Origin: Bacteroidota bacterium
GTDB taxonomy: Bacteria; Bacteroidota; Ignavibacteria; Kapaibacteriales; DASPKH01
NCBI GenBank assembly: GCA_040386315.1
Contig: JAZKFS010000001.1
Location: forward strand, 24,099-88,098
Reading direction: 5' to 3'
DNA length: 64,000 bases
A program made the translations under genes and the position numbers. Numbering within the stretch: position 1 is the stretch's first letter; each line of letters starts with the position of its first letter. The notes below the pieces were generated by a model. It saw only the letters and a program-made list of their open reading frames with translations, ran no database searches and was not told the DNA's origin. Below, one piece after another: positions 24,310 through 42,200 of this stretch.

Positions 24310-24383
24310 GCACCCGTAGCTCAACTGGATAGAGCATCTGACTACGAATCAGAAGGTTGTAAGTTCGAATCTCGCCGGGTGCA
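24310..24383 (+). tRNA. tRNA-Arg(ACG). It serves as the integration site (attL side) for the downstream insertion.
   Basis: GCACCCG-TA-GCTC-AACTGGATA-GAGC-A-TCTGA-CTACGAA-TCAGA-AGGTT-GTAAG-TTCGAAT-CTCGC-CGGGTGC-A gives a cloverleaf with anticodon ACG (there is one A.C pair in the T-stem). A terminator hairpin (aaatccttataag...cttataaggattttt) follows. Confidence 0.9.
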
Positions 24384-24781
24384 CTCTAAATCCTTATAGG
24401 TCAATGACTTATAAGGATTTTTGCTTTTAACGCGTAACAAATACATAACAAAAATATCGCGTTTTTTAGTTGACTTCTTAACATTTAGCCCACTTTTGCT
24501 CAAGTTTCTTAGTTAAGTTTGGAATTTTTCCAGTAACACCACCCACCTAGGAGTTATTAGTGGTATGCAATAAACCAAATTATCTAAGCCAAAGAGAACT
24601 CCTGTAAAACTGACACGATCTTCCGAAGTCTTCAGACTTCGACCGGGCCTCAGTATGAAATAGATTCCAGAAAAAAGCTTAACAACTTCATGGTTAACCT
24701 TTATGTCTCCCGTACACCTAAGACTAACCTATTTTGTTTTATACCTGCATTTTTTGTTCGTACTCGATACAGTAGTATCTT

Positions 24782-25432
24782 ATGCAAATTGATTTCGGCT
24801 TTACAGATAAAAATATTGCTCAATATTTCACTCCTAACTTTGTTACGAGTGAGGTATTGACCAGCAAAGAAAAACTTTATGCTAAGGGTTTTTCGCATAA
24901 AAGATTATGTCATTTTAGTACAGGCAGACATTGTGCTAAAAAAGTCATTGAAAACTTAAATGTAGCTGATAATGAAATTTTAATTGGATCGGATAATGTA
25001 CCGGTCTGGCCGAAAGGTATTGTTGGCTCGATTAGCCATACTAATGGTATGGTTGGAGCAGTTGCTGCAAAGTCTTCTGAACTACTTTCAATAGGAATGG
25101 ATATTGAGGAAATCGGGCGTGTCAAAGGCAATATGTGGGATATGCTATATACCCCAGCAGAACAAAAATATCTTTATCAACTACCGGAAAAAGAAAAGGC
25201 TCTTTACACTACTTTACTCTTTAGTATGAAGGAAAGTTTTTATAAACTTCAATATCCTCTTACACAAAATAAATTATGGTTTACCGATGTACAGATTAGT
25301 AAAAAAGATGAAAACTTCAGTCTGCAGGTCTTGATCGATTTTGAAGGCAAAGAATTGCTGAAAAATTCAACCAAGCTTCATTTTGCAGTCTTTAATAACT
25401 ATGTCATCAGTCTTTGTTTTATAGAAAGTTAG
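24782..25432 (+). CDS. 4'-phosphopantetheinyl transferase (Sfp/PfaE-type)
   Basis: The PPTase motifs are GSISHTNG, IGMDIEEI (the (V/I)G(I/V)D motif) and LLFSMKESFYK (the (F/W)(S/C/T)xKE(S/A)xxK motif). It lies next to a multi-ACP PKS. Confidence 0.75.
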   Translation: MQIDFGFTDKNIAQYFTPNFVTSEVLTSKEKLYAKGFSHKRLCHFSTGRHCAKKVIENLNVADNEILIGSDNVPVWPKGIVGSISHTNGMVGAVAAKSSELLSIGMDIEEIGRVKGNMWDMLYTPAEQKYLYQLPEKEKALYTTLLFSMKESFYKLQYPLTQNKLWFTDVQISKKDENFSLQVLIDFEGKELLKNSTKLHFAVFNNYVISLCFIES

Positions 25433-25709: not shown

Positions 25710-28145
25710 TTAAATATCATCAAATTGTTCTCTTCTTTCTGTTCCTTTTTTACTGTAATACAACTCTTGACTGACAATTATTTCAGCACCTTCAGATCTT
25801 AGGCACACTTTTGAGTCCATATCATAAGTGGTTACATTAGCCACCAACTTAGTTGGTGAGTGTGTTACCATTTCAAAGAAAACATTGTAATCCTTATCAA
25901 ACTCAAGGGGCTGATATACCAAAACCTTATTACACTTTACTGGAAGACTCCCAGCATCGTAAATATACTTGGCCCAGATTAACAGACCCTGATACTGAAC
26001 ATCGGAAATAAAAGTATTTATTTGATTGATAGGAAATTGCCCTTGCATCTCATCCTCAACTGATTTTACATTGCATTGAAAACGCATGTAATTCTCGCCA
26101 TATATCTCCACCTCCTTAATCCCTTGAAAAGATTTTCCATGAAATAAGGTACCGTTTGTATAATAATTATCTCCGTTTTTCTTCAAATTACATTCAGGTA
26201 AAGTGGGTAAAGAAAATGATGGAATTTCTTCTTTACGTTTTGTCAAAATCACCTCACTTCTGTAATGGAAAACTTTATTTCCATAATCATTTTGACTGTA
26301 AATACTTCCTTCACATTTAATTGTATCCTGGGATTTTTCCAGTTCTTTAATTTCAAGATGATAATCTTTGATTAAATCATCATTTAAAACTATACCTTTA
26401 AACATTTTACTGTTTTCAATTGCAGAAATGTATAAGCCTGGGTAGAGGTTGGCTGTAGATTCTGCAATCCAGGCTATCGAACTTACAACCGGAAGTACCG
26501 GATTCCCTCCTATTTCATGGTCATGAAGAAAAGGATTTAATTTTAACTTCAGCTGGCGATTGATCAAATATGTTTTCAGAGTCGAATCTGCACTATAATT
26601 TGGTACAGGTTTCGTTGCATAAACGACCTCAATATGTGTGTCAGCGATATTTAATTCATTTATAAAAAATTGAACAGCCTTGTCTTTTTCGATAGAAATG
26701 ACACCATTTTCCGCAAATAAATTTCTAAGCTGAGGGCTTGTATTTTCATCATTCCAGGGTGCCCAGTTAAATGCTTTTACTATACATCCGGGATTTTGGT
26801 CATGTATTTGATAACATACATGATTAAGGATTTCATCGGTCATAGCTACTTCAACCTGGCCAAAAGATCCAAATTTTCCACCGGCAGAAGAAAACACTAT
26901 TAAATACTTTAACTCATTTAGGTTGATGGCTTTAAATACATTGTAAAAGTTCTCAATTCTAGCAAAAAAAATCTTTTCAAATTCCTCAATTGTCTTTCGT
27001 TCTATTTGTTTATAGGTCGTTTTGATGGATCCAAAAATTACTCCGGAGATTGATCCTAATTGTAATTTTTTTTTCTCCATTTGTTCTTTGAAAACCGTTT
27101 CCTGATAGAAAGTGACCTTAGATCCTACCTCCTGCAAGGTTTGGACAATCTTTTGAATCGTTCTTTTATAAATGATTGAATCATAGAGTTTTTGCACCTC
27201 AATTGGTAGTGGGTTCAAATTCTGCGATTTAAGATAATTTACAATAATCTCCTTTAAGTTCTTTTCTTCTATAATGCCTCTAGACCAATCATCTTCAGGT
27301 ATACTAATATCAGCTTTACCCACTACTAATAGTTCCGGCTTGTACCTTTTAGCCAATTCTAAAACTAAAGAACTGGTTGGCTCATTTTCAATATTGTCAA
27401 CAGCAAAAACTTCTGCTTTGGAAACAGGATTATAAGAGGTAATTGTCGGAACCAAGGGCTTAAGTTCTAATGCATATCTGCCTCTTTTGTGCCATATAAT
27501 TTCTTTAAAGTTTAAATTCGGGTCAAAAAGCTCAGAAAGTAAAAGCTCTGCTTTTTCTTCATGAGTATATGAAGTTGAAAACTTTATATGTCGGCTATTA
27601 CAATCTGGCCATTCAAGACTTAAACTATTTGCTAAACCGGTGTAAGCTCCATTCAGAGCCGATCCACAGGCAATATTCGGATGACCGTAAAAATTTGAAA
27701 CAAAAAAGATCTGAAACATCTCCGATTTTTCATAAAAAAGATCTTTAAGACGCTTCGATAATAAAAATGCCGTTCTGATAGAAAAGACTTCTGCCTTGAG
27801 ATTTGGTGAAAAAATATCATTCCCTAAACAAGAAAAGAAAAGCAAACCGGATAAAGATCGCCTAATAATGTGTTCAGCGTCCTTTAAAGCGTTTTTAATC
27901 GATTCATCATTAATATTATCCAATTTTACAGATTTTATTTCCTCTGAAATACTTGATTGTGTTTTAGAATTACAAATCACGACAATTTCAATCTGGTTCT
28001 TTTTTAAAATTTTTACGAGGGGATTAAAGAATTCAATGTCATCGGAAAAAATCACATAAGCATTTCTATAAGGCAATACAGACACAAGTCTGTCAGGATA
28101 AGGAAGTTGTTTTAAGGTAGGGATGCGGCGAAAAATGGATTCCAT
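25710..28145 (-). CDS. Degenerate ketoreductase-dehydratase (KR-DH) paralog of the 702-aa KR-DH protein; probably non-catalytic
   Basis: It is homologous to ORF 36984..39092: LIVFSSAGGKFGSFGQVEVAMTDE aligns with ICCFSSVAARMGNIGQVDYAMANE, and KAFNWAPWNDENTSPQLRNLF aligns with KSINWGPWEGGMVSPQLKKHF. The catalytic Tyr of the YxxxN motif is replaced (VAMTD), and there is no Gly-rich NADPH motif. Confidence 0.6.
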   Translation of the reverse strand: MESIFRRIPTLKQLPYPDRLVSVLPYRNAYVIFSDDIEFFNPLVKILKKNQIEIVVICNSKTQSSISEEIKSVKLDNINDESIKNALKDAEHIIRRSLSGLLFFSCLGNDIFSPNLKAEVFSIRTAFLLSKRLKDLFYEKSEMFQIFFVSNFYGHPNIACGSALNGAYTGLANSLSLEWPDCNSRHIKFSTSYTHEEKAELLLSELFDPNLNFKEIIWHKRGRYALELKPLVPTITSYNPVSKAEVFAVDNIENEPTSSLVLELAKRYKPELLVVGKADISIPEDDWSRGIIEEKNLKEIIVNYLKSQNLNPLPIEVQKLYDSIIYKRTIQKIVQTLQEVGSKVTFYQETVFKEQMEKKKLQLGSISGVIFGSIKTTYKQIERKTIEEFEKIFFARIENFYNVFKAINLNELKYLIVFSSAGGKFGSFGQVEVAMTDEILNHVCYQIHDQNPGCIVKAFNWAPWNDENTSPQLRNLFAENGVISIEKDKAVQFFINELNIADTHIEVVYATKPVPNYSADSTLKTYLINRQLKLKLNPFLHDHEIGGNPVLPVVSSIAWIAESTANLYPGLYISAIENSKMFKGIVLNDDLIKDYHLEIKELEKSQDTIKCEGSIYSQNDYGNKVFHYRSEVILTKRKEEIPSFSLPTLPECNLKKNGDNYYTNGTLFHGKSFQGIKEVEIYGENYMRFQCNVKSVEDEMQGQFPINQINTFISDVQYQGLLIWAKYIYDAGSLPVKCNKVLVYQPLEFDKDYNVFFEMVTHSPTKLVANVTTYDMDSKVCLRSEGAEIIVSQELYYSKKGTERREQFDDI

Positions 28146-28357
28146 GTTTAATAAATTTGTTATGTAATTTATGTCATCCGTCTAATCTGCAAAGTTCATA
28201 ATTGAAGGGTAGACTTTTTTTAGCTTTACCAAAGATATCATCTCAGAAGAAGTGTGTATCAACCTGGGATTTCTACACAAATGATAATCACTTCTTATTT
28301 TACTGCAAGTCCTTTACCCTCCTGACTATTCTTGGAGCATGGTAAACTTTCAATCCA

Positions 28358-28579
28358 TCAAAGTCTTGCTTTACCTAAAACAATTACTCCTTTTGCATTT
28401 CTAACGATTTCATTTACATCAAAATCAACTAAATCAACTTTGTTATCAGGTATTACCTGCCCTCTATAATGCCATTCAGATTCTTCCTTAATTGCTACAG
28501 GTTTAAAGATCGGTTTGGTTATCCCAAGGTGAAGTCCCTGTTGAATAATAAAAAAACTGTACACCAAATCGCACTCCAT
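28358..28579 (-). pseudogene. Remnant of a FabA-like dehydratase domain C-terminus (fragment duplicated from the large pfa protein)
   Basis: The 73-aa ORF KPVAIKEESEWHYRGQVIPDNKVDLVDFDVNEIV...VLGKARL matches EPIAIMEETEWHYRGQVTPDKKLISIDFEVREVL...VMGESRL in ORF 29886..36971. There is no N-terminal domain and no proper start. Confidence 0.6.
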
Positions 28580-28752
28580 GATTTTTTAAAACACCATCGG
28601 GTTCTAATTTTCAAACACTACGCTAATGAAACTTCCTATTTTTCTATCATGAGAAAAGAAATTTTTTAATATATAATAGAGTTTGCGCCAGATCCGAAAC
28701 AAACTTTAGGTTACTTTCCATTATATGTATTATTTATTTTAAAAGACCCCTT

Positions 28753-29856
28753 TTATACATTAGTTATTTCTTTGTGATTATTAGTTTGCTCTCTTATTAT
28801 ACCCAATTCCTTTTTATAAAGATTAGCACTAACCAGGTTCGCCTTGCCCCAAAGTGTTGTTAATTTTTTGTCGGACCAGTTATAAACTGGCTCATTATTT
28901 CTTTCTTTTGCCGGATTAAGAAAGCCGGTATATAATAAGGTTAAATACAGTGCCAAAACACGATTTTCAATAAATTCTGTAGGCTTATTATGATAATTTG
29001 CTACCTGAGGAATAATAAGTTTCGGTAACAGATACAAAAATGAGGGATATTGGGAAACAAAAGCCATATTCCAAGTTTGATACAGATTGGCCCACTCTTT
29101 GGGTAGTGACATTCTGATACGAATAGTTTTCTTATCTTCTGACCATATGGAAGGCCCAGCACCTGTCAACGGATCTTCTTTCGCAGCCCCAGCACGATTA
29201 ACTACAAGAGGCAGGCAGGCCTTAGCATTATCTTTATTGCCCTTTAGAAAATCAAAAAGGTAAGCCTCCAGAATATTAAGAGGCAGCAACCAGCGAAAGG
29301 CTCCTGGAGGAACAACCCCTGTTTTATGCATTTCTAATTTTTTCAGGAGACCAGCTTCTATACTTAATAATTTTACTTTATGAAAAAAACTAGGATGCCG
29401 AAATACCTGTGCTTTATTTTTTCTTTCCCGGAAAATATTTGTTAAAAGAATAATGAATTCTGGGTCTTGGGCCATCTGTATAGATAATCGCTCTAGTACA
29501 ATGGCAAAGGCTAATAAATCGGGAATTACATAAGTCCCCTCCTCTTTAAACTTTTCCGTTAGGGTTTCAAATCTCTCGCTCCCAACCTGCTCCAGAAAGT
29601 TTACTAAATATTCATTTTTCTGGGCAAGTTCAGTCATTTCCCAAACAAAAGACTTCGTGCGGTTTTCCGTCCAATTTTTGCCTAAAAGTTCATCAGACTT
29701 TTTTTGTAACTGGGGGTGTACCCAATTCATTTGGTTATCTAATAGCTGGAAAATTTGGTAATGCTTTACCATTAATTGAAACATACTTTCACTATCAATG
29801 CCATTAAGGCACTCGTTAATCTTATCGGCTATTTTGTTTAATACCATTATTTGCAC
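28753..29856 (-). CDS. Hypothetical protein (367 aa) within the pfa-like operon
   Basis: The ORF is long and uninterrupted, co-oriented with the flanking PKS genes and tightly spaced to them. No motif was recognised. Confidence 0.4.
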   Translation of the reverse strand: MQIMVLNKIADKINECLNGIDSESMFQLMVKHYQIFQLLDNQMNWVHPQLQKKSDELLGKNWTENRTKSFVWEMTELAQKNEYLVNFLEQVGSERFETLTEKFKEEGTYVIPDLLAFAIVLERLSIQMAQDPEFIILLTNIFRERKNKAQVFRHPSFFHKVKLLSIEAGLLKKLEMHKTGVVPPGAFRWLLPLNILEAYLFDFLKGNKDNAKACLPLVVNRAGAAKEDPLTGAGPSIWSEDKKTIRIRMSLPKEWANLYQTWNMAFVSQYPSFLYLLPKLIIPQVANYHNKPTEFIENRVLALYLTLLYTGFLNPAKERNNEPVYNWSDKKLTTLWGKANLVSANLYKKELGIIREQTNNHKEITNV

Positions 29857-29885
29857 CTATTGCTACTCTTACGTTTAATTTAGTT

Positions 29886-32800
29886 TCATTCAATAATTTG
29901 AAAAAGCGGATTCATTTTTCCTAGAATAGGATTAATAAATGGCTTATGATAACTCTTAAAGCCCATAAACTGGTACAAAGGCAATAATTCATCCCTACAA
30001 AACATTAGAAGCAATCCTGGTCCCATTTTTAAAATGTGATCATAAACACCTACACACAAAGTTCGTAAGTCTGTAAAATCCCGGTAATCAGAATGAAATA
30101 TCAACTTATCGGTAAAATAAAAATCGTCGAATTTTTCCTGAAAAGCAGATAATTGATAGTTTTCAAAGAATTCCGAGCTAGCATTTGCCATTTTTAACAT
30201 GTTTAGCCGGCAAACACCAATTATTCTTTTATCCTTTTGAAGATAAAAATTTACACCTGTGGCATCGAGTTCATCAGTTATTATTTTTTCATTTTTATTG
30301 GGAAAATCATATCCCATATTTTCCGCATAAACTGTATACCGAAGCCGGTAGATTTCATCCAATTCTTCTTGAGTAGAGGCAATTTTTACTTTTCCCAAAC
30401 CCTTATCCACTACCCGCATTCCAATATTTGGGGCATGGTAAATTTTTAATCCATCAACCCACAAACGAGACTCTCCCATTACTGTAATGGCCTGTTCTTC
30501 TATGAGCACTTCCCTAACTTCAAAATCAATAGAAATCAACTTTTTATCGGGGGTAACTTGTCCTCTATAATGCCATTCTGTTTCTTCCATTATAGCAATC
30601 GGCTCAAAAACAGGATTATTCAGATGAGCGTGAAATCCTTGATCTAGCATATAAAACTGCATGAGTTGCACCATTGCTTCAATTCCCAGGGAGCCGGGTT
30701 GTACCGGATCCTGGAAAAAATGCACTTTAAAAAACCATTCGCTTTTTTCTACATCTTTTTCTGACTTGATATAACCTTTTCCATGTTTTCCACCTTCCGG
30801 ATAGAAAGCTACTATTCTGTCAATCATAAGCAATTTCGATGACGGAAGGCAGGCTGAACTTGCGCTGAAATATTTCTCAGGGAAGGAAGTTAAATCTACT
30901 TGGACATTGCTGGCCAGAGACACATTTACTTTTTCTTCTGAGGTAATGGCTAATCCCTTCTGGGTTTTCATCGACCCGGTATCAAAAAAGCCGAAAACCG
31001 TGTTCATAGTAAAAACAGGCTCATCGTTAATAGTAGAAACTACATCAAATTTTACAATGATGATTTCTCCCATTATCGATACACCAGTTAGGTCTGTACG
31101 GGTAATAATGGTTTTATCTGCGGGAGTAATTGGCCTATGTTGAATAGCTTTGCCATCGAGATTGCGGAACACCAAATCTTTATCCTTAATGTCATGCTGG
31201 CAAATAAAGGTACTAAACCAACCACAAGGCTGTAATGCTACCTCCATTAATACCCCGTATGGCATGGTTTTATAACCATTTTCCCTGAAATACCAAACAT
31301 CCTCCGAAATATCGTACTCTGCCACCGCAAATGACTTAGCCTTGTAATTTCCGGGTTCTAGCTGGTAATCGGCAATGCGAGTCATAAAATGATATGGAGG
31401 ACCTGGTAATCGTGGGCTTCTGTCCGATCCATCGTAATGATTAAAATCAGGTCCGAAGGCATCTGCTGGCCGACCCAAAGCACAATTAATCAAGGATTCG
31501 TACCCAAATTTAAATCCTTTATAATTGGCGATAGGCTTTCCAACTACATCCTCCTCAATTAAATGCCGCATAGTAGCCAAAGGCCAATCAGGAACAAGTC
31601 TTAAGCCAAGGCCTTCACAAAGAAATGCTTTATTGCCATCTACTGTAGTTAAAACGTGGGCATAAATTGTAGGATATTCGCCATCAATGATTTCCGAAAC
31701 AAAAATTTCATAAGTAACTTTTTCAGATTCCGGGGTAACCTGTCCGCGACAAACAAACTTGTATTTATCGTTAGTAACGGGTTCAAAACGCCAACCGTCT
31801 TTGTTAACCGTTAACCCGGCTCCTACCATATAAAAAGCCATCATCTGCATGCAGGCATCAGCCATTAAGGTACCGGGCATGCAAGGATCATTTTTAAAAT
31901 GGCCTTTGAAGTACCAGTCATTCGGATTTACAGTTGTCTCTGATTTCAGATATCCTCTTTTTGCAGGTCCTCCAAGCAGATCGAAAGTGGTTATATTTTC
32001 TATAAAATTCTGATATCCGGCTTGTGACCGGGGAGTTCTGGTATGAGTTGTAGTCCAGTTTAATTCTTCTCCGAAACAAGTAACCATATCTCCTAACGTA
32101 TAAGCAACAACCTCTTCAGAACTAAAGGATTGTTTCTTAGTTGGGCTTTTTAGATGTGGAAGAGCGGAAGAACTATATGCTGCTTTTTCAGGATCCCATA
32201 TAATTCCTTTAGACTCTTTTAGCTCTTCCTTTGTAAAGAATCCAGCCTGCCCATTTCTTACTGATATTCTAAGGTTGCCATCAATATGGCAGTCATAATG
32301 GAAAAAGAATAATGTTGTTTCTCCTGTTTTCGCATAGCCGTCAACATGAATTTCATATTTTAGCGTATCACCGGGCTTTGGTAACTCACCAAAGAATTCC
32401 AATTCGCAGCCTAGTAAACGGTATGCCCTTTCACCTTTATTCTGAAAATCAATTCCCAGATACGATATAAGCAGTAAGTCTGCCTGACCTGCTTCTATAA
32501 AGATCCCGGGAGGCATACGGTTATTATGCAAATACCAGCTCTGCTCTGTTACATCAGTTTCTGTCCAAATAGTACCCAGCTTTAGCGAACCAGGTTCTCC
32601 TTTGATACCCGTTACTCTGTCACACAGCAATAAGGGAGGCTCAGGCATTCTCACTTGAATGTCATATTGATCCTGCTTTTCAAATAAAGATCCAAAGACA
32701 GAAGATATTTTTCCAGATGCAAGAATCTCTAACTGCTCTCTGCTAAATTTTGGGCCCGGCAGTCCCTTAACATCTTCAAGCAAAGCAGTGGAAACCTTCA

Positions 32801-35800
32801 ACTCTTCACCTTGTAGAATAGAAGAAGAAGCAGGTAATTGCAAATCTCTATTTTCTTTATTGACTATAAACTGACTATTCGATGAGATACCTTCATCAAA
32901 TGGATATTGCTCTAATGGGACTACATTTCTCTGGCCTTCATTTATCAATTGGCTAGCCATGTTTTGCAAAAGATTTGTAAAATCTCTCTGGGCTTTTAAC
33001 TGTACTTTAAGGAAATTATCATATACTTCAGTCATTATGTTATGTTGATCTAATATCATGTCTGTTATAAAGCCTGAGCTTTCCATTACCTGGTCATTAT
33101 TTACAAACTGCACGGTTTGATCAGAAACTTGGAATGTTTGAGTTGCTGCCATATTTTCTTCTTTATTCTCAGCTGAAATAATCGAAGGTATATTTCGCAT
33201 CACTCTTTTTGTCACTGCTATCTGAGGTGCTCTTTCCAATATATGTGGCGAATTCATAGGTTTTTCAGATGCTGAAGTATGAAACATTTTATTTTGGGAT
33301 ACCATCTTATTATGTATTTGCTCAATGTGCATGGGAAATTTAATTTCCATCACTGGCTGTTCTGTTTTACTCATGGCAGCCAAAACTTCCAGATTTACCG
33401 GAACACCAGCACACCACAATTCTGTGCTGGCTCTAAAAGCTTCCAAGAGGTCAGATTGTCCGAATTTATCTAAAGCTACACTTACAAAATCTCGTCCTTG
33501 TAGAATTTCATGGATCGCTAAGGTTAAGCTGTTACGTGGACCGTGTTCTACAAATACGCGGACACCATCTTTATATGCTTTTTCTACAATTCTGGTAAAA
33601 TCAATAGGCTGCAAAGCCTGGCCGGTTAAGGCGTCAGCGACTGTCTCTGAAGTGGGTGAATAAATGCCATCCAGGTAATTAGAATAGAATCTAACATCTT
33701 CAACTTTATTTACCTTTCTGGTATGTAGCTTCCGCCATTTATTTTCATATGGAATTGCAGGAGCACAATGAACAGCAATATCGTGATGTAATGGCATTGC
33801 TTTTTCAGCACCAATATGGTGTAGTATTCTTGCGCAGGCTTCTTTATCACCGCCAATTACACAATCACTTTTTGTATTTACTATGGTCAGATATACGCGC
33901 TCTTCATTAACCAGGAGCTCTCTGACCTCCTCTACAGGTGCTAAGATTCTCCAATTTTCCCAATCCACTTTTTCATGAGTCTTCAATCCCCAGTATTCTT
34001 TTACCGAATTGAAATCTACTGCTAATGATGAACGGTACAGTTCACTTTCGTAAATATCCTCTAACAGGGTGTCCATATCTTCCCAAACACCAAAAGCAAA
34101 CATAGAATTGGTTTCTCCTGATGAAAGTCCGATAGAGGCATCAGCCTTTAATCCCAGTACCTTCCGAGTAAACGTAGAATGCACCTGGCACATCAAAGAA
34201 GAGCCAGTTAATTGGTAAAATGGCAGCTTTCCTTTCGGGCTATTTGTTTCATATATCCAGTCTCCTGCAAAAGCCGGGTTTTTGCAGAAATGTTCTACTC
34301 CTTCCACCAATCCCGGAAACTCCTGTAAAAGATCCCTTCCCATTTGAGGATAGGCTGATGCCGCACCTGTAAATACAAAGGCTACCTCTCCATTTATCTT
34401 TTGAGATCTATAATGTATAAAAGGGGTGATCCAACCATTGATCTTTTTTTCCTGTTGCAATAATTGTAAAGACTGTTCTTTATGCTTTTGCAAATCCTCT
34501 ATTGAAGAAATAATTCCCAGGCGATGTGTACCATCCTGAGAATAAACATTTTCTTTTATTGAATTAATAAGCGATACTTTATCATTACCGGAGTAACAAT
34601 GAATCAACAAGGATTCCGTACTACGGATTTTTATATCGTTCAATGGTTGAGAATGAACAAAGACATCACTTTTAGCTCCGAATAATGAATAACATGTGAT
34701 TTTATAAGAATAGTCGTTGCTATTTTCCAGCAAAGGTTTTAAAGATGTAGCTTCATGTATCTGTAAACGATGGCGGGTCAATAACACAGCGGTCGCGACT
34801 TCCAACAAACCGCTACTCGCATGAGAATAGCCGGTTTTGGACCTCATATAACCATTATCGAACGGGTAAACATTTTCACGCTTTTCATCTGAACCAATTG
34901 TTGCATAAATTGAATCGCCATCTGAAATCGCTTTATTATAGTCCTTTAAAACCAAAACAACTGCCGTGTTGCCTGAAGGAAGATTTATATCCAATACATT
35001 TGACAATGCTGCACGATTCACCAGCTCATCCGACATATCAACCGCTCCTACAATAGCGGCACTAAGTTCTCCATTTTGTATTGCGTCTATAGCCACCTCA
35101 AGGGCTTTTACGCCCGAAAGCTCTTCACATGAAACTGTAAAACCCGTTCCCGTTAAATCAAAATGATAGTTAATTCTATTTGCCGGAATATTTGGCATAG
35201 TACCCAAAGCACCTGCTGCATTTAGTACGGGGCTTATAGATTCTTCAAGTTGCTCCAATTCATTTCTTTCATATGCGATATTGCCTTTCTGTAGTAATTC
35301 CTTAAGTCTTATCCGGAATATATACCTGTTAATTTCGGCATCCGCCCCGATTCCAACAAATACCCCGGTACTTTCCTTATCCAGCTTAGCACCCTTTGCC
35401 AGCAATTGCTGAGTGGTTTGAAGCATTAATAACTGCTGGCCCAAAGCATACTTCAAATCAATTGGAGGAGAGCTTAGTTTATTAAGTTCAAATGTTATAT
35501 TTTCATTTGTATACTTGCTGGCATCTTCATTCAATAAGCACTTCACATAGTCGTTTGCGCTTTTGAATTTATCAGACTGTACTTCCACACCGACAACTGC
35601 AACTTTTCGCTTCTTTGGATTACTTTTATTTGTAGGATACTCGGTAAGAGGGTTCCATTCTTCCAATATCACATGCGCATTATTTCCACCAAAACCGAAG
35701 TTGCTTATTCCAGCTATCCTGTTTCCTTTGCTCTTCCAATTCGCAGGATCGTTGGAAACTGAGAAGCCGCTGTGTGCTAAACCTTCATTAAGTGGGAACG

Positions 35801-36971
35801 TATTCGGTGTGGGTGGCAACGTATTGTATTGAAATGCGCCTAATACTTTTATTATACTTCCAATGCCTGAAACAGTAATAGTATGCCCTATATTTCCTTT
35901 AAGTGAGCTTAGATGTATAGATGATGAATGACCGTACACCTCCTGCATGCTACCGATCTCAATAAGATCACCTGTAGTAGTACCTGTAGCATGACATTCA
36001 ATATAACTTACTTCCTTTGGATCAATTCCTGATGATGCCAAAGCATTTTTCATAGATCTTGCTTGCCCTTTTTGCGAAGGCGACAGGAATCCACCCTGTT
36101 TTCCATCATTGGAAAGCCCAATACCTCTGATAACACCCAGGATTTTATCATTGCTGGCAATGGCATCCTTTAATCTCTTTATCACAACAAATCCTGCGCC
36201 TTCTGCAGGTATTAATCCATTAGCATTCTTATTGAATGGGAGCGAATGACCTGATGGACTTAAGGCATTTAGGGCAGTAAATCCAACATGGAGGAATAAC
36301 TGATCGGACGCACAAACGCCACCTATCAGCATCATATCTTCTGTGCCATTTTGTAATTTATCACACCCTAATTTTAAGGCATATAATGAAGAAGCACATG
36401 CAGCATCTATGGCAAATGCATCACCTGCTAATCCTATTGCCTTGGCAGTAAGTATTGCAGGTAAACCCGACATAAAACGATTTACTGCTTCAACAGGTTG
36501 AGCCGGATTCTGCCACTCAGGAAATAAGGACAATAAACACTGCTCTTCATAGTATTGGCTAAAGGAACGTGTTGGATAAGAAAGATTACCCATTATCAAA
36601 CCAGTTCTTTCTGTCACTTCATGACCAAAATACCCTGCATCTTTTAGCGCAGCCAATGCAGAATGAAAGCTCCACTTAAAAAGCGGGTCTAAACCCTTTA
36701 CAATACTCGCATCAAGCAAATAAGCATTAGCATCAAAAACCTCTTCAAAACCTTTGATGTAACCACCAAAGCTATGCCAAGCTTTGTTTTTTAATGATAT
36801 CTCACCTCCTTCAGCAAGCACTTCATTTATCTGTACTCTCCAGTCATCAGAAGTTCCAGCTGTGATATTTACTTCATTATTCGACACCATTTGCCACAGT
36901 TCCTCAGGTGTAAAACATCCTGGAAGAACACATCCCTGCCCGATAATTGCTACTGGTTCAAAATTTTTCAA
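29886..36971 (-). CDS. PfaB/PfaC-like multidomain PUFA/polyketide synthase subunit: KS - KS-like (chain-length-factor-type) - AT - two FabA-like DH domains - C-terminal putative acyltransferase domain
   Basis: The KS domain has DAACASSLYALKLGCDKL (active Cys), ECHATGT and GHTITVSG. The second KS-like domain spans about aa 450-780. The AT domain has VAFVFTGAASAYPQMG and GLSSGE (GxSxG). The two hot-dog DH domains contain FFKGHFKNDPCMPGTLMADACMQ and WFFKVHFFQDPVQPGSLGIEAMVQ (FabA-type active-site His). The C-terminal roughly 190 aa (30464-29886) contain an HSDYRD (HxxxxD) motif. Confidence 0.85.
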   Translation of the reverse strand: MKNFEPVAIIGQGCVLPGCFTPEELWQMVSNNEVNITAGTSDDWRVQINEVLAEGGEISLKNKAWHSFGGYIKGFEEVFDANAYLLDASIVKGLDPLFKWSFHSALAALKDAGYFGHEVTERTGLIMGNLSYPTRSFSQYYEEQCLLSLFPEWQNPAQPVEAVNRFMSGLPAILTAKAIGLAGDAFAIDAACASSLYALKLGCDKLQNGTEDMMLIGGVCASDQLFLHVGFTALNALSPSGHSLPFNKNANGLIPAEGAGFVVIKRLKDAIASNDKILGVIRGIGLSNDGKQGGFLSPSQKGQARSMKNALASSGIDPKEVSYIECHATGTTTGDLIEIGSMQEVYGHSSSIHLSSLKGNIGHTITVSGIGSIIKVLGAFQYNTLPPTPNTFPLNEGLAHSGFSVSNDPANWKSKGNRIAGISNFGFGGNNAHVILEEWNPLTEYPTNKSNPKKRKVAVVGVEVQSDKFKSANDYVKCLLNEDASKYTNENITFELNKLSSPPIDLKYALGQQLLMLQTTQQLLAKGAKLDKESTGVFVGIGADAEINRYIFRIRLKELLQKGNIAYERNELEQLEESISPVLNAAGALGTMPNIPANRINYHFDLTGTGFTVSCEELSGVKALEVAIDAIQNGELSAAIVGAVDMSDELVNRAALSNVLDINLPSGNTAVVLVLKDYNKAISDGDSIYATIGSDEKRENVYPFDNGYMRSKTGYSHASSGLLEVATAVLLTRHRLQIHEATSLKPLLENSNDYSYKITCYSLFGAKSDVFVHSQPLNDIKIRSTESLLIHCYSGNDKVSLINSIKENVYSQDGTHRLGIISSIEDLQKHKEQSLQLLQQEKKINGWITPFIHYRSQKINGEVAFVFTGAASAYPQMGRDLLQEFPGLVEGVEHFCKNPAFAGDWIYETNSPKGKLPFYQLTGSSLMCQVHSTFTRKVLGLKADASIGLSSGETNSMFAFGVWEDMDTLLEDIYESELYRSSLAVDFNSVKEYWGLKTHEKVDWENWRILAPVEEVRELLVNEERVYLTIVNTKSDCVIGGDKEACARILHHIGAEKAMPLHHDIAVHCAPAIPYENKWRKLHTRKVNKVEDVRFYSNYLDGIYSPTSETVADALTGQALQPIDFTRIVEKAYKDGVRVFVEHGPRNSLTLAIHEILQGRDFVSVALDKFGQSDLLEAFRASTELWCAGVPVNLEVLAAMSKTEQPVMEIKFPMHIEQIHNKMVSQNKMFHTSASEKPMNSPHILERAPQIAVTKRVMRNIPSIISAENKEENMAATQTFQVSDQTVQFVNNDQVMESSGFITDMILDQHNIMTEVYDNFLKVQLKAQRDFTNLLQNMASQLINEGQRNVVPLEQYPFDEGISSNSQFIVNKENRDLQLPASSSILQGEELKVSTALLEDVKGLPGPKFSREQLEILASGKISSVFGSLFEKQDQYDIQVRMPEPPLLLCDRVTGIKGEPGSLKLGTIWTETDVTEQSWYLHNNRMPPGIFIEAGQADLLLISYLGIDFQNKGERAYRLLGCELEFFGELPKPGDTLKYEIHVDGYAKTGETTLFFFHYDCHIDGNLRISVRNGQAGFFTKEELKESKGIIWDPEKAAYSSSALPHLKSPTKKQSFSSEEVVAYTLGDMVTCFGEELNWTTTHTRTPRSQAGYQNFIENITTFDLLGGPAKRGYLKSETTVNPNDWYFKGHFKNDPCMPGTLMADACMQMMAFYMVGAGLTVNKDGWRFEPVTNDKYKFVCRGQVTPESEKVTYEIFVSEIIDGEYPTIYAHVLTTVDGNKAFLCEGLGLRLVPDWPLATMRHLIEEDVVGKPIANYKGFKFGYESLINCALGRPADAFGPDFNHYDGSDRSPRLPGPPYHFMTRIADYQLEPGNYKAKSFAVAEYDISEDVWYFRENGYKTMPYGVLMEVALQPCGWFSTFICQHDIKDKDLVFRNLDGKAIQHRPITPADKTIITRTDLTGVSIMGEIIIVKFDVVSTINDEPVFTMNTVFGFFDTGSMKTQKGLAITSEEKVNVSLASNVQVDLTSFPEKYFSASSACLPSSKLLMIDRIVAFYPEGGKHGKGYIKSEKDVEKSEWFFKVHFFQDPVQPGSLGIEAMVQLMQFYMLDQGFHAHLNNPVFEPIAIMEETEWHYRGQVTPDKKLISIDFEVREVLIEEQAITVMGESRLWVDGLKIYHAPNIGMRVVDKGLGKVKIASTQEELDEIYRLRYTVYAENMGYDFPNKNEKIITDELDATGVNFYLQKDKRIIGVCRLNMLKMANASSEFFENYQLSAFQEKFDDFYFTDKLIFHSDYRDFTDLRTLCVGVYDHILKMGPGLLLMFCRDELLPLYQFMGFKSYHKPFINPILGKMNPLFQIIE

Positions 36972-36983
36972 ATTTCTGCTTTA

Positions 36984-39092
36984 TTAATTCTTGTACATGT
37001 AAATTCTTAAACCAGTCATTTCTGCAAGTAGCTGCTGATCTTTATCCTTGAAGTGAATATCCCATTCAGAATCCTTATCTCCCTTCTTTCTCAGTGCCAG
37101 CTCGCAATGCATTTGAGAAGCAGGATAAGATTGTGTATATAACTTCAGGGAATCATAACCTAAGGGAAGTGATGAGTTATTACCAGTCCATTTATCCATT
37201 GCCAGCAACGCTAGTTGTATGCCGCCGTCAAAAAGAAACATATCTGATAACCACCTCATTTTACTAATATGGTTAGAATCAGAGATTTTTACAATACCCT
37301 TGCAACCATCTTCATTAATTCCTTCCAGCTTTTCAACTACCTGAAAATCGGGTCCATGAAAAAGGTGGCCATTATAAATGTCGTTTTTCTTCCAAGTCCA
37401 TGATTGTAGATTTTTTAGTTCTATACCTGAATCAGGAGCATTAGATATTGCATTAGATAAGTTTACTGTGACAGCATAATATGGCTGATTGCCTTCATCT
37501 TCAATTTTAATCTTGACTACTGCAGTGTTATTTTTTCTTTCCACACTATAATTAAAGAGAAGGATGTCTCCATTATTTTCAAAATTTTCAAGATGAATGC
37601 CTTTATAAACTTTCAGGTTGTTTACTTCAACTATCCTAAGATCCGGGCAAAGACTTTGGGCGAGGCGCATGCTCCATTCATTGGCCATCATCATTGGTAC
37701 AATGACCTTTCCCTCTATTCTATGACTTTCCAGAAAAGCATTGTTTGATTTGTGAATCCACATATTGCGGTAATTCTGTGATATGGGTCCCACTTTTTTA
37801 CCCCATCCATCAAATGCACCACCGACTACAACTTCTACATTGTCAATAGAGGCATCTTCCATTTCATCAGCAAACATTTCTACTCCTGTTCGCAATGGGA
37901 TCAGATCTACATCCATAGATTCAAAATGTTTCTTCAATTGCGGAGATACCATTCCGCCCTCCCAAGGTCCCCAATTGATTGATTTTACCACGCAGGTGTT
38001 TTTGCGTTTCTTCTGTTCTGCCTGGCAAACTTTGTTTAGTACTTCATTGGCCATAGCATAATCCACCTGACCTATATTCCCCATACGGGCAGCCACAGAA
38101 GAGAAACAACAGATATGTGTAAGTTTATCTTTTGCTGTTGCTTCTAGCAAATTGATAAATCCTGTAATCTTGGTATTGAAAACTTTATTAAACTGATCAG
38201 TTGTTTTTTCGTGTATATATTTATCAGCCAGTACTCCTGCTGCATGAACTATTCCGTGTATAGCACCAAACTCCTTTCTTATTTCATCCACAGCAGCTTT
38301 CACAGCATCTGCATTGGAGATATCTACAGAAAAATACTTTACAACTGAACCATCATTGGTTAGCACATTAATATTTTCCAGGACTTCCCTGTTGCCGAGA
38401 GTTTTTGAAACAGTCGCATTCACATCCATTGGAGAAACTTTCTGACCTTCTTTTATAGCCTGTTGAAATACTGCGTTTTTTAGTTCCGCGTCAGTTTTAT
38501 AACTGGCTAAATATGCTGGCTCTTCTTCCAATTTTGTTCTTCCCAAAATGCCGATATTCAGCTTTTTACGTTCTGATAAGGCAATAAGACATGCTGCAGT
38601 AACACCTTTGGCGCCACCGCTCACTATTATTGTATCACCATTATTAAGACTTTTCGAGTGATCGTTAATATCTACAACAGTAGAAATTAATTGATATCTG
38701 TTTCCAGATGCATCAATTTCTATTTCTGTAACAGATCCGCCAGAGGTAATAGCATCAAAGAGTTCGTTTGCAATTTTTACAGCAGCCTTTCCGCTACAAT
38801 CAATATTAATAGATTGAACGTCAGCATTAGGCCATTCCAATTTAGCCGTTTTAGCCAGGGCACTTATCCCACCTGACCAGGCTCTGTTGTTATTTTTTTT
38901 ACTTGCTAATCCATTATCGAAAGGGAGTATTAAACAACCGCTTCCCGTAAACAACGTTTTGGCACAGGTCTGAGCTATCTCAAAAGTATCTGTATTGACA
39001 GCAAGAATCTGCTCAATGGTATTATTAGCATATATATTGAGTCCTCTCAAATTAATGACGTAAGCAGCACTTTCCGGTAAACTGCTTACCAC
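36984..39092 (-). CDS. Ketoreductase + PKS-type dehydratase (KR-DH) protein, equivalent to the C-terminal third of a canonical PfaA
   Basis: The Rossmann motif is IIVSGGAKGVTAACLIAL and the KR catalytic motif is GQVDYAMANE (YxxxN). The C-terminal hot-dog fold contains LFHGPDFQVV. The gene starts 13 bp after the stop of the preceding large pfa gene. Confidence 0.8.
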   Translation of the reverse strand: MVSSLPESAAYVINLRGLNIYANNTIEQILAVNTDTFEIAQTCAKTLFTGSGCLILPFDNGLASKKNNNRAWSGGISALAKTAKLEWPNADVQSINIDCSGKAAVKIANELFDAITSGGSVTEIEIDASGNRYQLISTVVDINDHSKSLNNGDTIIVSGGAKGVTAACLIALSERKKLNIGILGRTKLEEEPAYLASYKTDAELKNAVFQQAIKEGQKVSPMDVNATVSKTLGNREVLENINVLTNDGSVVKYFSVDISNADAVKAAVDEIRKEFGAIHGIVHAAGVLADKYIHEKTTDQFNKVFNTKITGFINLLEATAKDKLTHICCFSSVAARMGNIGQVDYAMANEVLNKVCQAEQKKRKNTCVVKSINWGPWEGGMVSPQLKKHFESMDVDLIPLRTGVEMFADEMEDASIDNVEVVVGGAFDGWGKKVGPISQNYRNMWIHKSNNAFLESHRIEGKVIVPMMMANEWSMRLAQSLCPDLRIVEVNNLKVYKGIHLENFENNGDILLFNYSVERKNNTAVVKIKIEDEGNQPYYAVTVNLSNAISNAPDSGIELKNLQSWTWKKNDIYNGHLFHGPDFQVVEKLEGINEDGCKGIVKISDSNHISKMRWLSDMFLFDGGIQLALLAMDKWTGNNSSLPLGYDSLKLYTQSYPASQMHCELALRKKGDKDSEWDIHFKDKDQQLLAEMTGLRIYMYKN

Positions 39093-39232: not shown

Positions 39233-42200
39233 CTATATATCTAAATATGTTGCCGTGCGCAGGGACTTTTTTCCCTGTGAAAAAACGCCTCCTGCGCCAG
39301 TTAAATCTGTGTTACTAGAAAATGCAAGTATTTCTCCAAGCGTATTCATTGCCGCTAATTTGGCTTTGTCTACATTTTTCAATTCAGGGAAGACTTCCTG
39401 TAAAGCAGAAAGAATCTCTACCCGTTTGATAGAGTCTATTCCCAATCCCGACTCAAGATCGGTCTCTAGATCCAGTATTTCTTTAGGATACCCAGTTTTT
39501 TCTGCAACTATCTCCAGCATAGTATCTTTCAAATCACCATGCGAAACAGTATTATCAGTCGCAACTGGAGCCCCACCCTGACTTGCCGGAGCATTACCTC
39601 TGGAGAATCTAAGTATTTCTCCAAGTGTATTCATGGCAGCTAATTTCGCTTTATCTACATTTTTTAAGTCAGGAAACACATCTTGCAAAGCAGAGAGAAT
39701 TTCCACTCTTTTTATAGAATCAATTCCTAAGCCGGATTCCAGATCGGTAGTTAGATCAAGAATTTCTTTTGGATAACCTGTTTTTTCCGCAACAATCTGC
39801 AACATGGTATCCTGGAAGTTCTCTGAAACTGCTTGTGTTGTAACCGGTGCGGGAACAGCCCGCTGACCTACTGAGTTTGTAGGTTGTGGTGAACTGCTTT
39901 TAGAGAAAGCAAGAATCTCAGCCAAAGTATTCATTGCTGCTAATTTAGCCTTATCAACACTTTTCAAAGCTGGAAACACATCTTGCAAAGCAGAGAGAAT
40001 TTCCACTCTTTTTATAGAATCTATCCCTAAGCCAGATTCCAGATCCATATTTAGATCAAGAATTTCTTTTGGGTAGCCTGTTTTATCAGCAACAATAGTT
40101 AATAAACTATCTTCGAAAACAATACCAGCGACAACAGCAGGTGCTTGTACTTGTGGTCCAACAACGTGAGGAGCAACAATAACTTCTTGTACAATTTGCG
40201 GTTTGGCTACCATTCTTTCTACTACTGGCTGTGGTTGAGATACAACTTGTTTCTCAGGAGCAGCTGGTAAATATTGGGGTGCTGACTGTTGGATTGTTGC
40301 ACCATTACCTGACAAGTTTCCTAAATGGTGAAACGCTACCTGAGATGTTTCTAAAAACATCCGGTGACTTTCTGCTAAAGTTTCCTGAAAACTTTTTTGT
40401 GCACTCAGTGTATTTTTCTGAATTTCCTGAAATGCACTTAACCATTGATTGTTTATTCCGCTCATTGTGCTTTTTTGTGATGTTGTTTGGATTAAATTTG
40501 TTCTGATCTCTGTTTTTTGAGGAGCAGATTCTTGGCTGGTTACTACTTGTTGTTGTTTCTGTTGCACCGGCACCGCGCTGTTTTGATTGTTAACAGTATT
40601 GACTATTTGCATTTCCGGCTGTGGGACTTCAACAACTTCTGGATTCGGTTTTGGAAGACTATTAAATCCTCCTACAGGTGGATAAGGTTTTCCGTAATTA
40701 GATCCGTTAATCTTTACTGTGGCAACAGATGGTTTCTTTTGTGCGATAACTTTTTTATTGTCATCGATACTTTTCCAGATTTCTTCGAAAGCAACAGGAA
40801 TACCTGTCACAGCAAGATGACCAATAGCTCCCCAGAAAGCATCTTTACTGTTCAACTTTTTACCACCATCCATAGAAATGGCCGTGTGTGGTTTATCTTT
40901 TAAAATATCTTTAACAAAGTTTCCTAATACTTTACCAGGACCAACTTCTAAAAATACTCTCACACCTTCTGCATACATTGCCTCAACCTGTTTCTCAAAC
41001 TGCACAGGTGCTGCCAGTTGATTGGCTAACACCTTGGCGTACTCTGCACTATTCCTAGGATAATGTGAGGCAGTGGTATTGGAGTACACTGGCATGCTCG
41101 CTGTACCAAAATTTATCTTTTTCAGGTAGGTTTCAAAGTCTACTGCACTACCTGCAACAAGGTCAGAATGAAATGCAGTTGACACATTCAAACGCATAAA
41201 GCGTATTCCGGCCTGTTCAATTTCTTTCTCAATTTCTACTATAGCATCAAAAGTTCCTGTAATAACGGTTTGAAGAGGGCTATTCAAATTTGCGATCACC
41301 ACTCTGGTTTTTGCTTTCTTTAAAAATTCTGCAACCACTTTAGAAGAAGCAAGTACGGCTGTCATGGCACCCTTTTCTTTCGAAGCAGCTGCCATTAATT
41401 CACCTCTTTTTCTGGAAATATTTATCAAATCTTCTTCATTGGTAATTATACCTGCAGCATAAAGTGCAGCCACTTCACCATAGCTATGACCTCCTACTAC
41501 ACTTGGCACAACATGTAATTTATTCAATAAATTTAGATGCGACATCGCCAATGCTCCAATAGCAGGCTGGGCCCATTTCGTATCAACCAGTAAATCGGTT
41601 TGGGCTTGTATTTCTTCTTCCGAGAAAACAGGAATAGGATATACAACGTTATTCAACCGTTTGCTTGGATCGAGTTTCATAGACGAAACTTTATTCCATG
41701 GACTTAAGGCTGCGTCATATTGCATCAATAGATCAGCACCCATATTTACATATTGACTTCCTTGTCCGGAGAAAAGGAAAGCTACATTTCCATCAGGTTT
41801 CTCTTCAGAATAAAAAACAGTGTTATTGATTTCTACTTTAGAAACTTTTTTTGCAAGTTCAGAAATGACATGTTCGCTCCATTTTAATATTTCAGCCATA
41901 TTTTCACCATAAATGGCAAGCCTTACAGTGTCCTGTGAATTAAATGCAGCTTGTGTAGATTTAGCTAATTGCACTAAATCCTGGGTCGTTCCGCCACTTT
42001 TTAAATGCGTAAGTGCACTAATTATTTCTGCCTGATTTTTTCCTGAGTATAAAAGTAATTCGCGGCTAACATTGTAAACTTTATCTGGTCGATTCGCTTT
42101 TTTATCATACTCTTCCATTACGACATGGAAGTTAGTTCCACCAAAACCCATGGAGCTAACTCCTGCTTTACGTGAAGTAGTTTCATCATGGATCCATGGC

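Follow-up and report, generated by a model that had tools for sequence, protein, structure and literature searches.

In the window analysed here, a stretch of 64,000 nucleotides from the Bacteroidota contig JAZKFS010000001.1, a single minus-strand gene (29886-36971) encodes a Pfa3/PfaC-like subunit of a polyunsaturated fatty acid (PUFA)-type synthase and carries, fused in frame at its C-terminal end, a GNAT domain of the FeeM-like N-acyl amino acid synthase (NAS) type. We propose, with a probability of about 60%, that this domain acts as a built-in chain-release step giving an N-acyl amino acid. The host cluster would be a myxobacterial-style, enoyl reductase (ER)-first cluster for a PUFA-synthase-like secondary lipid, in which the finished acyl chain, held as a thioester on the tandem acyl carrier proteins (ACPs) of a subunit with ketosynthase (KS), acyltransferase (AT) and three ACP domains, might enter the GNAT domain and be moved onto the alpha-amino group of a free amino acid or of another amine. 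The product would then leave as an N-acyl amino acid lipid and not as a free fatty acid or phospholipid. The ACPs encoded at 39233-43501 are the presumed acyl donors, and the Pfam scan found no ACP in the fused polypeptide itself. Catalysis by the domain, the use of the synthase's own acyl-ACP and the amide nature of the product are what we infer from these sequences.

The fused open reading frame (ORF) runs unbroken over 2361 amino acids, with its stop codon at 29886-29888, and ends in ...LWVDGLKIYHAPNIGMRVVDKGLGKVKIASTQEELDEIY...FHSDYRDFTDL...LYQFMGFKSYHKPF...QIIE. The C-terminal peptide quoted in the initial annotation, which gave no strand, could be located in this minus-strand frame; the plus strand across 29886-30464 contains many stop codons. 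According to Pfam and NCBIfam, the protein is a PfaC/Pfa3-type subunit that unites a KS, a KS-like region in the position of the chain-length factor (CLF), an AT and two FabA-type dehydratases (DH) in one polypeptide before the GNAT domain (KS-CLF-AT-DH-DH-GNAT). The KS (35595-36959; PF00109, PF02801, PF16197) has the active-site motif DAACASS and is followed by a second ketoacyl-synthase stretch (approximate limits 34404-35594), PF00109/PF02801 being found in two stretches of the protein; the CLF label is putative and comes from position. A PfaB-like AT (33498-34403) was recognised by TIGR02816 pfaB_fam at residues 857-1158 with 74.5 bits, which is under the cut-off, and weakly by PF00698. 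The tandem DH-DH region (30411-32984, N-terminal limit approximate) matches PF07977 (FabA; E 1.2e-94) in four stretches, the best of which covers residues 2042-2180. After the canonical PfaC-type C-terminus (...KIYHAPNIGMRV) a linker of seven residues, VDKGLGK (30390-30410), leads into the GNAT domain (29889-30389, residues 2195-2361); the fusion point lies four residues beyond the conserved ...KIYHAPNIGMR end, and in the window assembly the frame is open and uninterrupted across the DH2-GNAT junction. The initial annotation was right to see a separate domain at this end, but the domain is shorter, about 167 instead of about 190 residues, and the span 29886-30464 given for it begins at residue 2170, 18 residues inside DH2, whose FabA stretch ends at residue 2180.

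We read the terminal domain as a FeeM-type NAS because its Pfam scores, its homologues, its predicted fold, and the Foldseek and profile matches agree. The isolated domain is matched by PF13444 (Acetyltransf_5) with 31.6 bits (gathering threshold 22.4) and, marginally, by PF21926 (FeeM) with 27.3 bits (threshold 27); when the whole protein was scanned, PF13444 still passed with 26.8 bits, whereas PF21926 fell below its threshold with 22.1 bits. Among the NCBIfam models, weak similarities to an exosortase-associated acyltransferase and to OlsB are not diagnostic, and TraI, whose cut-off is 250, reached 16 bits. An AlphaFold2 (AF2) model built from an alignment of 26 sequences shows a compact, self-contained alpha/beta domain (pLDDT 91.3, pTM 0.86), for which Foldseek returned GNATs throughout the PDB matches with probability 1.00; the highest query TM-scores, over the full length, belonged to FeeM (2g0b, 0.77), BjaI (0.76) and RpaI (0.75), with a sequence identity of 12-14%, and hence low, in the structural alignment to FeeM. 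The profile of the alignment also matches acyl-homoserine lactone (AHL) synthases almost from end to end (TofI, profile positions 24-184), and the N-terminal RY...D..D...RL block of the domain is common to TofI. Residues 11-170 of the domain align with the 180-residue protein P0121, its closest homologue. The columns conserved in at least 90% of the aligned sequences (R27, Y28, D52, R71, R113, C141, G167) and the invariant G153 are all present; R27, D52, R71 and R113 correspond to R2211, D2236, R2255 and R2297 of the fused protein. By sequence and model together, the domain is thus an intact FeeM-type NAS domain separate from the hot-dog fold of the DHs. The likeness to GNAT/NAS domains and the exclusion from the DH fold that had been suggested earlier were borne out, and the profile and structure searches, with an acyltransferase family match and a fold of its own, favour a separate acyltransferase domain.

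The role of the domain is suggested above all by what occupies the same place in close relatives. The nearest DH-DH relatives are metagenomic proteins (P0001, 75% identity; P0002, 77%; P0003, 70%; P0008, labelled Bacteroidota, 75%), and they have the C-terminal motif ...LWVDGLKIYHAPxIGMR in common with the window protein. P0001 (contig L001) and P0003 (contig L002) end 4-7 residues past this motif; with P0004 included, the relatives terminate 4-8 residues past IGMR/IGMC. A gene for a stand-alone condensation domain of the nonribosomal peptide synthetase (NRPS) type lies 290 nucleotides downstream of P0001 and 25 nucleotides downstream of P0003 (PF00668, E 7e-54 and 6e-39, respectively), with the xHxxxDG motif intact. 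These condensation proteins (L001, 3299-4555; L002, 1321-2634) carry the motif in the form NHxIWDG, and their arrangement implies that in these Pfa-like pathways an NRPS-type condensation domain would release the chain as an amide or ester, a mode of release that is itself apparently uncharacterised. P0002, on the other hand, is extended at the same junction by a PlsC-like domain of about 350 residues, with the sequence NHQTGVE and a weak full-length match to PF01553, a family present in 10 of the 120 nearest synthase relatives listed. The slot at the junction is thus taken by a condensation gene in trans, by a PlsC-like domain or, in the window, by a GNAT/NAS domain, and since three unrelated acyl-transfer enzymes meet in one slot, the GNAT domain is most readily understood as the chain-release step; this is the main argument for our proposal. 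Genes for PorP/SprF and BshC were also seen on the relatives' contigs and, like the label of P0008, point to Bacteroidota.

The locus itself retains a trace of the unfused state. By tblastn and blastn a pseudogene fragment was found at 28309-28555 on the minus strand, between the neighbouring ORF of 367 amino acids (ORF367) and the gene for an 811-residue protein, 1.3 kb downstream of the fused gene; it is what remains of an unfused FabA-type DH2 at its 3' end. The fragment reads ...WHYRGQV...ARL/DGLKVYHAPRIVRRVKDLQ up to its stop, with one frameshift at the slash, covers the last 85 or so codons of DH2 (tblastn E 7e-26, 45% identity, with a second high-scoring segment in another frame; 80% nucleotide identity over 81 nucleotides in blastn), and, in the manner of the unfused relatives, has its own stop nine codons past YHAPRI. 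A live DH2 end on one side and this unfused relic on the other thus flank the GNAT domain and ORF367, which indicates that the fused state is the derived one and arose by rearrangement or replacement at this spot. Since its distance to the live DH2 is about the same as that to the relatives, the relic may be the displaced original end or an end from another copy. The GC content at third codon positions (GC3) of the GNAT part (0.28) lies within that of the whole cluster genes (0.28-0.33) and gives no sign that this part had an origin separate from the rest of the gene; its lower total GC reflects amino-acid composition. Domain fusions seldom leave so direct a trace as this relic. As a tentative extension, to which we would give not quite even odds, the ...KIYHAPxIGMR end may be a plug-in site at which three unrelated release enzymes are exchanged, NAS release being a form hitherto undescribed for PUFA-type assembly lines and the DH2 relic the scar of such an exchange.

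The listed homologues of the domain have a different architecture. Using HMMER, 614 matches with E<=1e-3 were obtained among 1.84 billion representative proteins, P0121 being the best with 42% identity; among the best 150 of the 614, all proteins have at most 697 residues, and the domain is N-terminal or makes up the whole protein. This library is collapsed at 50% identity, and a fused orthologue could therefore sit behind an unfused representative. Ten of the nearest homologues were scanned, and all ten are recognised by the FeeM and Acetyltransf_5 models, in eight cases above both gathering scores; the second-closest homologue, P0122, stays below both, and P0150 passes for FeeM only. All ten are stand-alone proteins or continue into a cyclic-nucleotide-binding (cNMP-binding) domain. 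Many relatives of the domain, often of 340-450 residues, are FeeM-type NAS N-terminal to such a domain (P0124, P0127, P0128, P0132, P0150), and one cNMP-fused relative has a methyltransferase in addition; this architecture suggests that N-acyl amino acid synthesis is regulated by cyclic nucleotides. The gene for P0121 lies on a short JGI contig and forms a tandem pair there with a paralogous gene for another stand-alone NAS (L008, 847-1389 and 1461-1829); the contig shows no synthase gene. In a word-indexed search, the domain as sole query gave no homologue, and the 26-sequence profile returned six proteins, all stand-alone or cNMP-fused.

No second GNAT/NAS domain on a Pfa-like synthase was found. 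Scans at the DNA level with the domain revealed no relative in JGI metagenomes or in the genomes of 185,579 GTDB species, and the GTDB scan with DH2 plus the domain gave three distant DH matches only, with the GNAT part uncovered. The domain had no phmmer match in any of the 120 best synthase relatives (P0001-P0120). Four relatives with a query coverage of 82-91% had been considered as possible carriers of the domain and were rejected: in P0028 and P0040 the coverage came from spurious BLAST extensions, and in P0020 and P0109 the alignment ends at most 66 residues into the 177-residue tail. Around stand-alone NAS genes at 63 metagenomic loci (417 kb, many of the contigs being short), no homologue of KS, AT, ACP, ketoreductase (KR), DH, ER, phosphopantetheinyl transferase (PPTase) or ORF367 was detected at E<=1e-5, a negative that carries little weight given the short contigs. 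A literature search for PUFA-type synthases bearing a GNAT or NAS domain found nothing relevant. A release acyltransferase fused to such a synthase is in itself already known; the NAS class at this position appears to be new.

The initial annotation had taken HSDYRD (residues 2293-2298; 30078-30095, minus strand) for an HxxxxD motif of the kind used by PlsC/AGPAT acyltransferases. The string is there, but it is judged to be a chance HxxxxD because in the 26 aligned homologues the His occurs in six sequences, the Asp in the window domain only and the Arg in 24, and because HxxxxD turns up in 21% of shuffles of the 177-residue segment. In the AF2 model the motif follows directly after the strand 99-108 and precedes the helix 115-132. 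This strand-helix site is where GNATs that use coenzyme A (CoA) have the Q/R-x-x-G-x-G/A P-loop. Inspection of the window domain revealed no Q/R-x-x-G-x-G/A CoA-binding motif; the P-loop position reads R-D-F-T-D-L, and G-x-G/A is absent there in most homologues too. Carrier-protein-dependent GNATs, FeeM among them, are reported to be marked by a non-canonical P-loop (PMC11685415), and acyl-ACP is the donor for NAS enzymes (PMC8762209). By the P-loop criterion of the former study the window domain would belong to the carrier-protein-dependent GNAT type.

An O-acyltransferase of the PlsC/AGPAT family, with HSDYRD as catalytic motif and a lysophospholipid as acceptor, would agree with the presence of such a domain at the same position in relatives and in myxobacterial Pfa3. 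However, PF01553 gave no match at E<=1 for the domain or for the whole protein, the fold is that of a GNAT, the motif is not conserved, and no similarity links the domain to P0002's PlsC-like tail; tests of family, fold and conservation thus refute this reading, to which we attach practically no probability. It is very unlikely, too, that the domain is a LuxI-like signal synthase, which would combine the Pfa acyl-ACP with S-adenosylmethionine to give an unusual AHL. The AHL synthases are the sister family of the FeeM-type NAS, BjaI and RpaI score nearly as high as FeeM in the structural comparison, the RY...D..D...RL block aligns with TofI, and a regulator with a LuxR-type helix-turn-helix (HTH) is encoded upstream (45905-47614). 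PF00765 (Autoind_synth), however, reached only 11.9 bits on the domain (E 0.16; threshold 24) where PF21926 and PF13444 passed, the nearest homologues scanned are of the NAS type, and the upstream regulator combines TPR repeats with GerE and has no autoinducer-binding domain. GNATs that depend on carrier proteins are also known from within polyketide synthases (PMC11685415), and the domain could be conceived as a chain-initiation GNAT that, as in the loading modules of CurA and GphF, decarboxylates malonyl-ACP or primes the chain and takes no part in release. The CurA/GphF type, however, is N-terminal in a loading module, whereas the window domain lies at the extreme C-terminus, after DH2, in the slot that release enzymes fill in the relatives; moreover, it groups with the FeeM/AHL-synthase type, and neither CurA nor GphF is among the 50 structural matches listed. 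We therefore hold this explanation to be highly improbable.

Of the alternatives to release by the NAS domain, a fusion without function carries the most weight, although we regard it as unlikely. The fusion could be an assembly or sequencing error that hides a stop codon and a separate NAS gene, or the domain could be a recently captured, inactive passenger. The fusion is a singleton whose junction lies outside the independent contig L004, the locus is visibly rearranged, as the DH2 relic shows, a motif that is usually S-R-L has become D-K-L, and a separate release gene does occur in relatives. Against this, the frame is open and continuous, the domain is of full length with conserved residues and a confidently predicted fold, and it is unlike the gene that follows the synthase in the relatives; even a separate NAS gene would directly follow the synthase, which implies the same role. 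As to the assembly, the same DNA is present in Logan assemblies of run SRR26324626: contig L003 carries an identical ER protein, and L004, which has its start within the GNAT domain, is 100% identical to about 28477-30314 of the window, including ORF367. When the fused protein was looked up by its exact sequence, no record was returned.

Several observations weigh against a NAS domain that releases the chain of this synthase. As L004 starts at about 30314, the window assembly is the one source for the DH2-GNAT junction. The fusion was seen once and no fused orthologue was found, so that conservation of the fusion or purifying selection on it cannot be shown. The FeeM profile score barely reaches its threshold (27.3 versus 27). 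The D-K-L of the window domain departs from the usual S-R-L of the family, the K being found also in P0121, P0123 and P0125; moreover, the domain, like its two closest homologues P0121 and P0122, lacks a C-terminal extension that most homologues possess. Among the neighbouring genes, none can be recognised as coding for an acceptor-supplying or modifying enzyme, and the adjacent ORF367 has no detectable family. Finally, off-loading could also be the work of the PfaB-like AT that the fused protein contains (PMC12895367).

Among characterised systems, the closest parallel to the fused gene is found in the myxobacterial Pfa3 proteins (KS-CLF-AT-DH-DH-[DH]-AGPAT), which belong to ER-first pfa1-pfa2-pfa3 clusters (Gemperlein et al.; PMC6731297) and whose AGPAT domain is thought to acylate 1-acylglycerol-3-phosphate, a lysophospholipid, directly (PMC6731297). 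The order of the window cluster is the same, with ER first, KS-AT-ACPn-KR-DH next and KS-CLF-AT-DH-DH last, and in both cases a release acyltransferase is fused C-terminally after the second FabA-type DH. The earlier statement that a fused acyltransferase is uncommon in Pfa-like synthases consequently needs division: fused PlsC/AGPAT domains are well known in myxobacteria (PMC6731297) and occur, as PF01553, in the ten listed relatives mentioned above, whereas the GNAT/NAS type was found nowhere else. Unlike in myxobacteria, the window protein ends in GNAT/NAS and not in PlsC/AGPAT, so that an N-acyl amide would be expected instead of an O-acyl phospholipid; furthermore, the Pfa2 equivalent is split into two genes, and a pseudo-KR-DH protein and an orphan ORF are added. 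Similar to the window cluster, too, are the 'Type L'-like clusters of Shulse & Allen, which are uncharacterised (PMC3098273).

The terminal domain has the Pfam families, the fold, the N-terminal conserved block and the non-canonical P-loop of the FeeM/NAS enzymes. Known NAS, however, are stand-alone or have the domain at the N-terminus, often before a cNMP-binding domain, and depend for their acyl-ACP on fatty acid synthesis or a separate carrier protein, whereas the window domain ends a megasynthase of 2361 residues. With the LuxI-type AHL synthases (TofI, BjaI, RpaI, LasI) it has in common a related GNAT-derived fold, the N-terminal motif and an acyl thioester as donor, yet its PF00765 score is far below the threshold and no autoinducer-binding LuxR partner is present. 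The relatives P0001 (L001), P0003 (L002), P0002 and P0008, finally, agree with the window protein in a DH-DH region that is 70-77% identical (75-77% for P0001, P0002 and P0008) and in the C-terminal motif, but none of them has a GNAT domain there.

A better knowledge of such termini would be of value, since the release mode of PUFA-synthase-like secondary lipid synthases and the products of most non-canonical clusters are largely unknown; many types of Pfa-like clusters have products that are not known (PMC3098273). An amide-forming terminal domain leads to a concrete, testable prediction of the product class of this cluster and would raise to three the types of release enzyme that occur at the position of the myxobacterial AGPAT. 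If the proposal is correct, the product may be a polyunsaturated or otherwise Pfa-specific lipoamino acid, so far not known from bacteria. The comparison with the relatives also suggests that an exchange of release modules is tolerated at the C-terminal junction of Pfa3/PfaC, and such swaps could be used in engineering to steer chains of the PUFA type into N-acyl amino acids; signalling lipids and surfactants belong to this class.

Among the remaining genes of the cluster, the set of ER, KS-AT-ACP3, KR-DH and PPTase is complete. On the minus strand, the operon begins with a PfaD/Pfa1-type ER (43503-45119; PF03060, PF21607), followed by the two halves of a split PfaA/Pfa2: the N-terminal KS-AT-ACP(x3) protein (39233-43501; PF00109, PF00698, and PF00550 in three stretches) and the C-terminal KR-DH protein (36984-39092; PF08659, E 7e-38, and PF14765). 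Downstream of the fused gene, after 29 nucleotides, ORF367 begins (28753-29856, minus strand), for which no Pfam, NCBIfam-type or PDB match was found; it is predicted to be mostly helical, its single-sequence AF2 model (pLDDT 34) is unusable, and it is unrelated to the condensation proteins of the relatives, though it stands in their position. The 811-residue protein beyond the relic (25710-28145, minus strand) is a diverged KR-DH paralogue with weak matches to PF08659 and PF14765 that is colinear with the KR-DH protein (24% identity, E 6e-42). It has lost the Gly-rich NADPH motif (GGAKGVT to NIENEPT) and the catalytic Tyr (Y to V) and retains the DH motif HxxxGxxxxP, and these signatures suggest a pseudo-KR joined to an additional polyketide-synthase-type DH. 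A PPTase of the Sfp/PfaE type is encoded on the plus strand (24782-25432; PF17837, PF01648). The gene for the TPR-repeat protein with the C-terminal LuxR/GerE HTH (45905-47614, plus strand; Pfam) lies immediately upstream of the ER gene in divergent orientation, and its product is a candidate regulator of the cluster.

A GC content of 33-41% and a GC3 of about 0.28-0.33 set the entire array (about 24.4-45.1 kb) off from its flanks, with 44-49% and 0.40-0.51, and the array adjoins a tRNA-Arg(ACG) gene (24310-24384, plus strand); this composition and position are consistent with a horizontally acquired island. Farther away, at 51816-54368 on the minus strand, the window encodes an 850-residue bacterial RNA repair enzyme of the Pnkp type (kinase-phosphatase-ligase; PF16542, E 9e-182).

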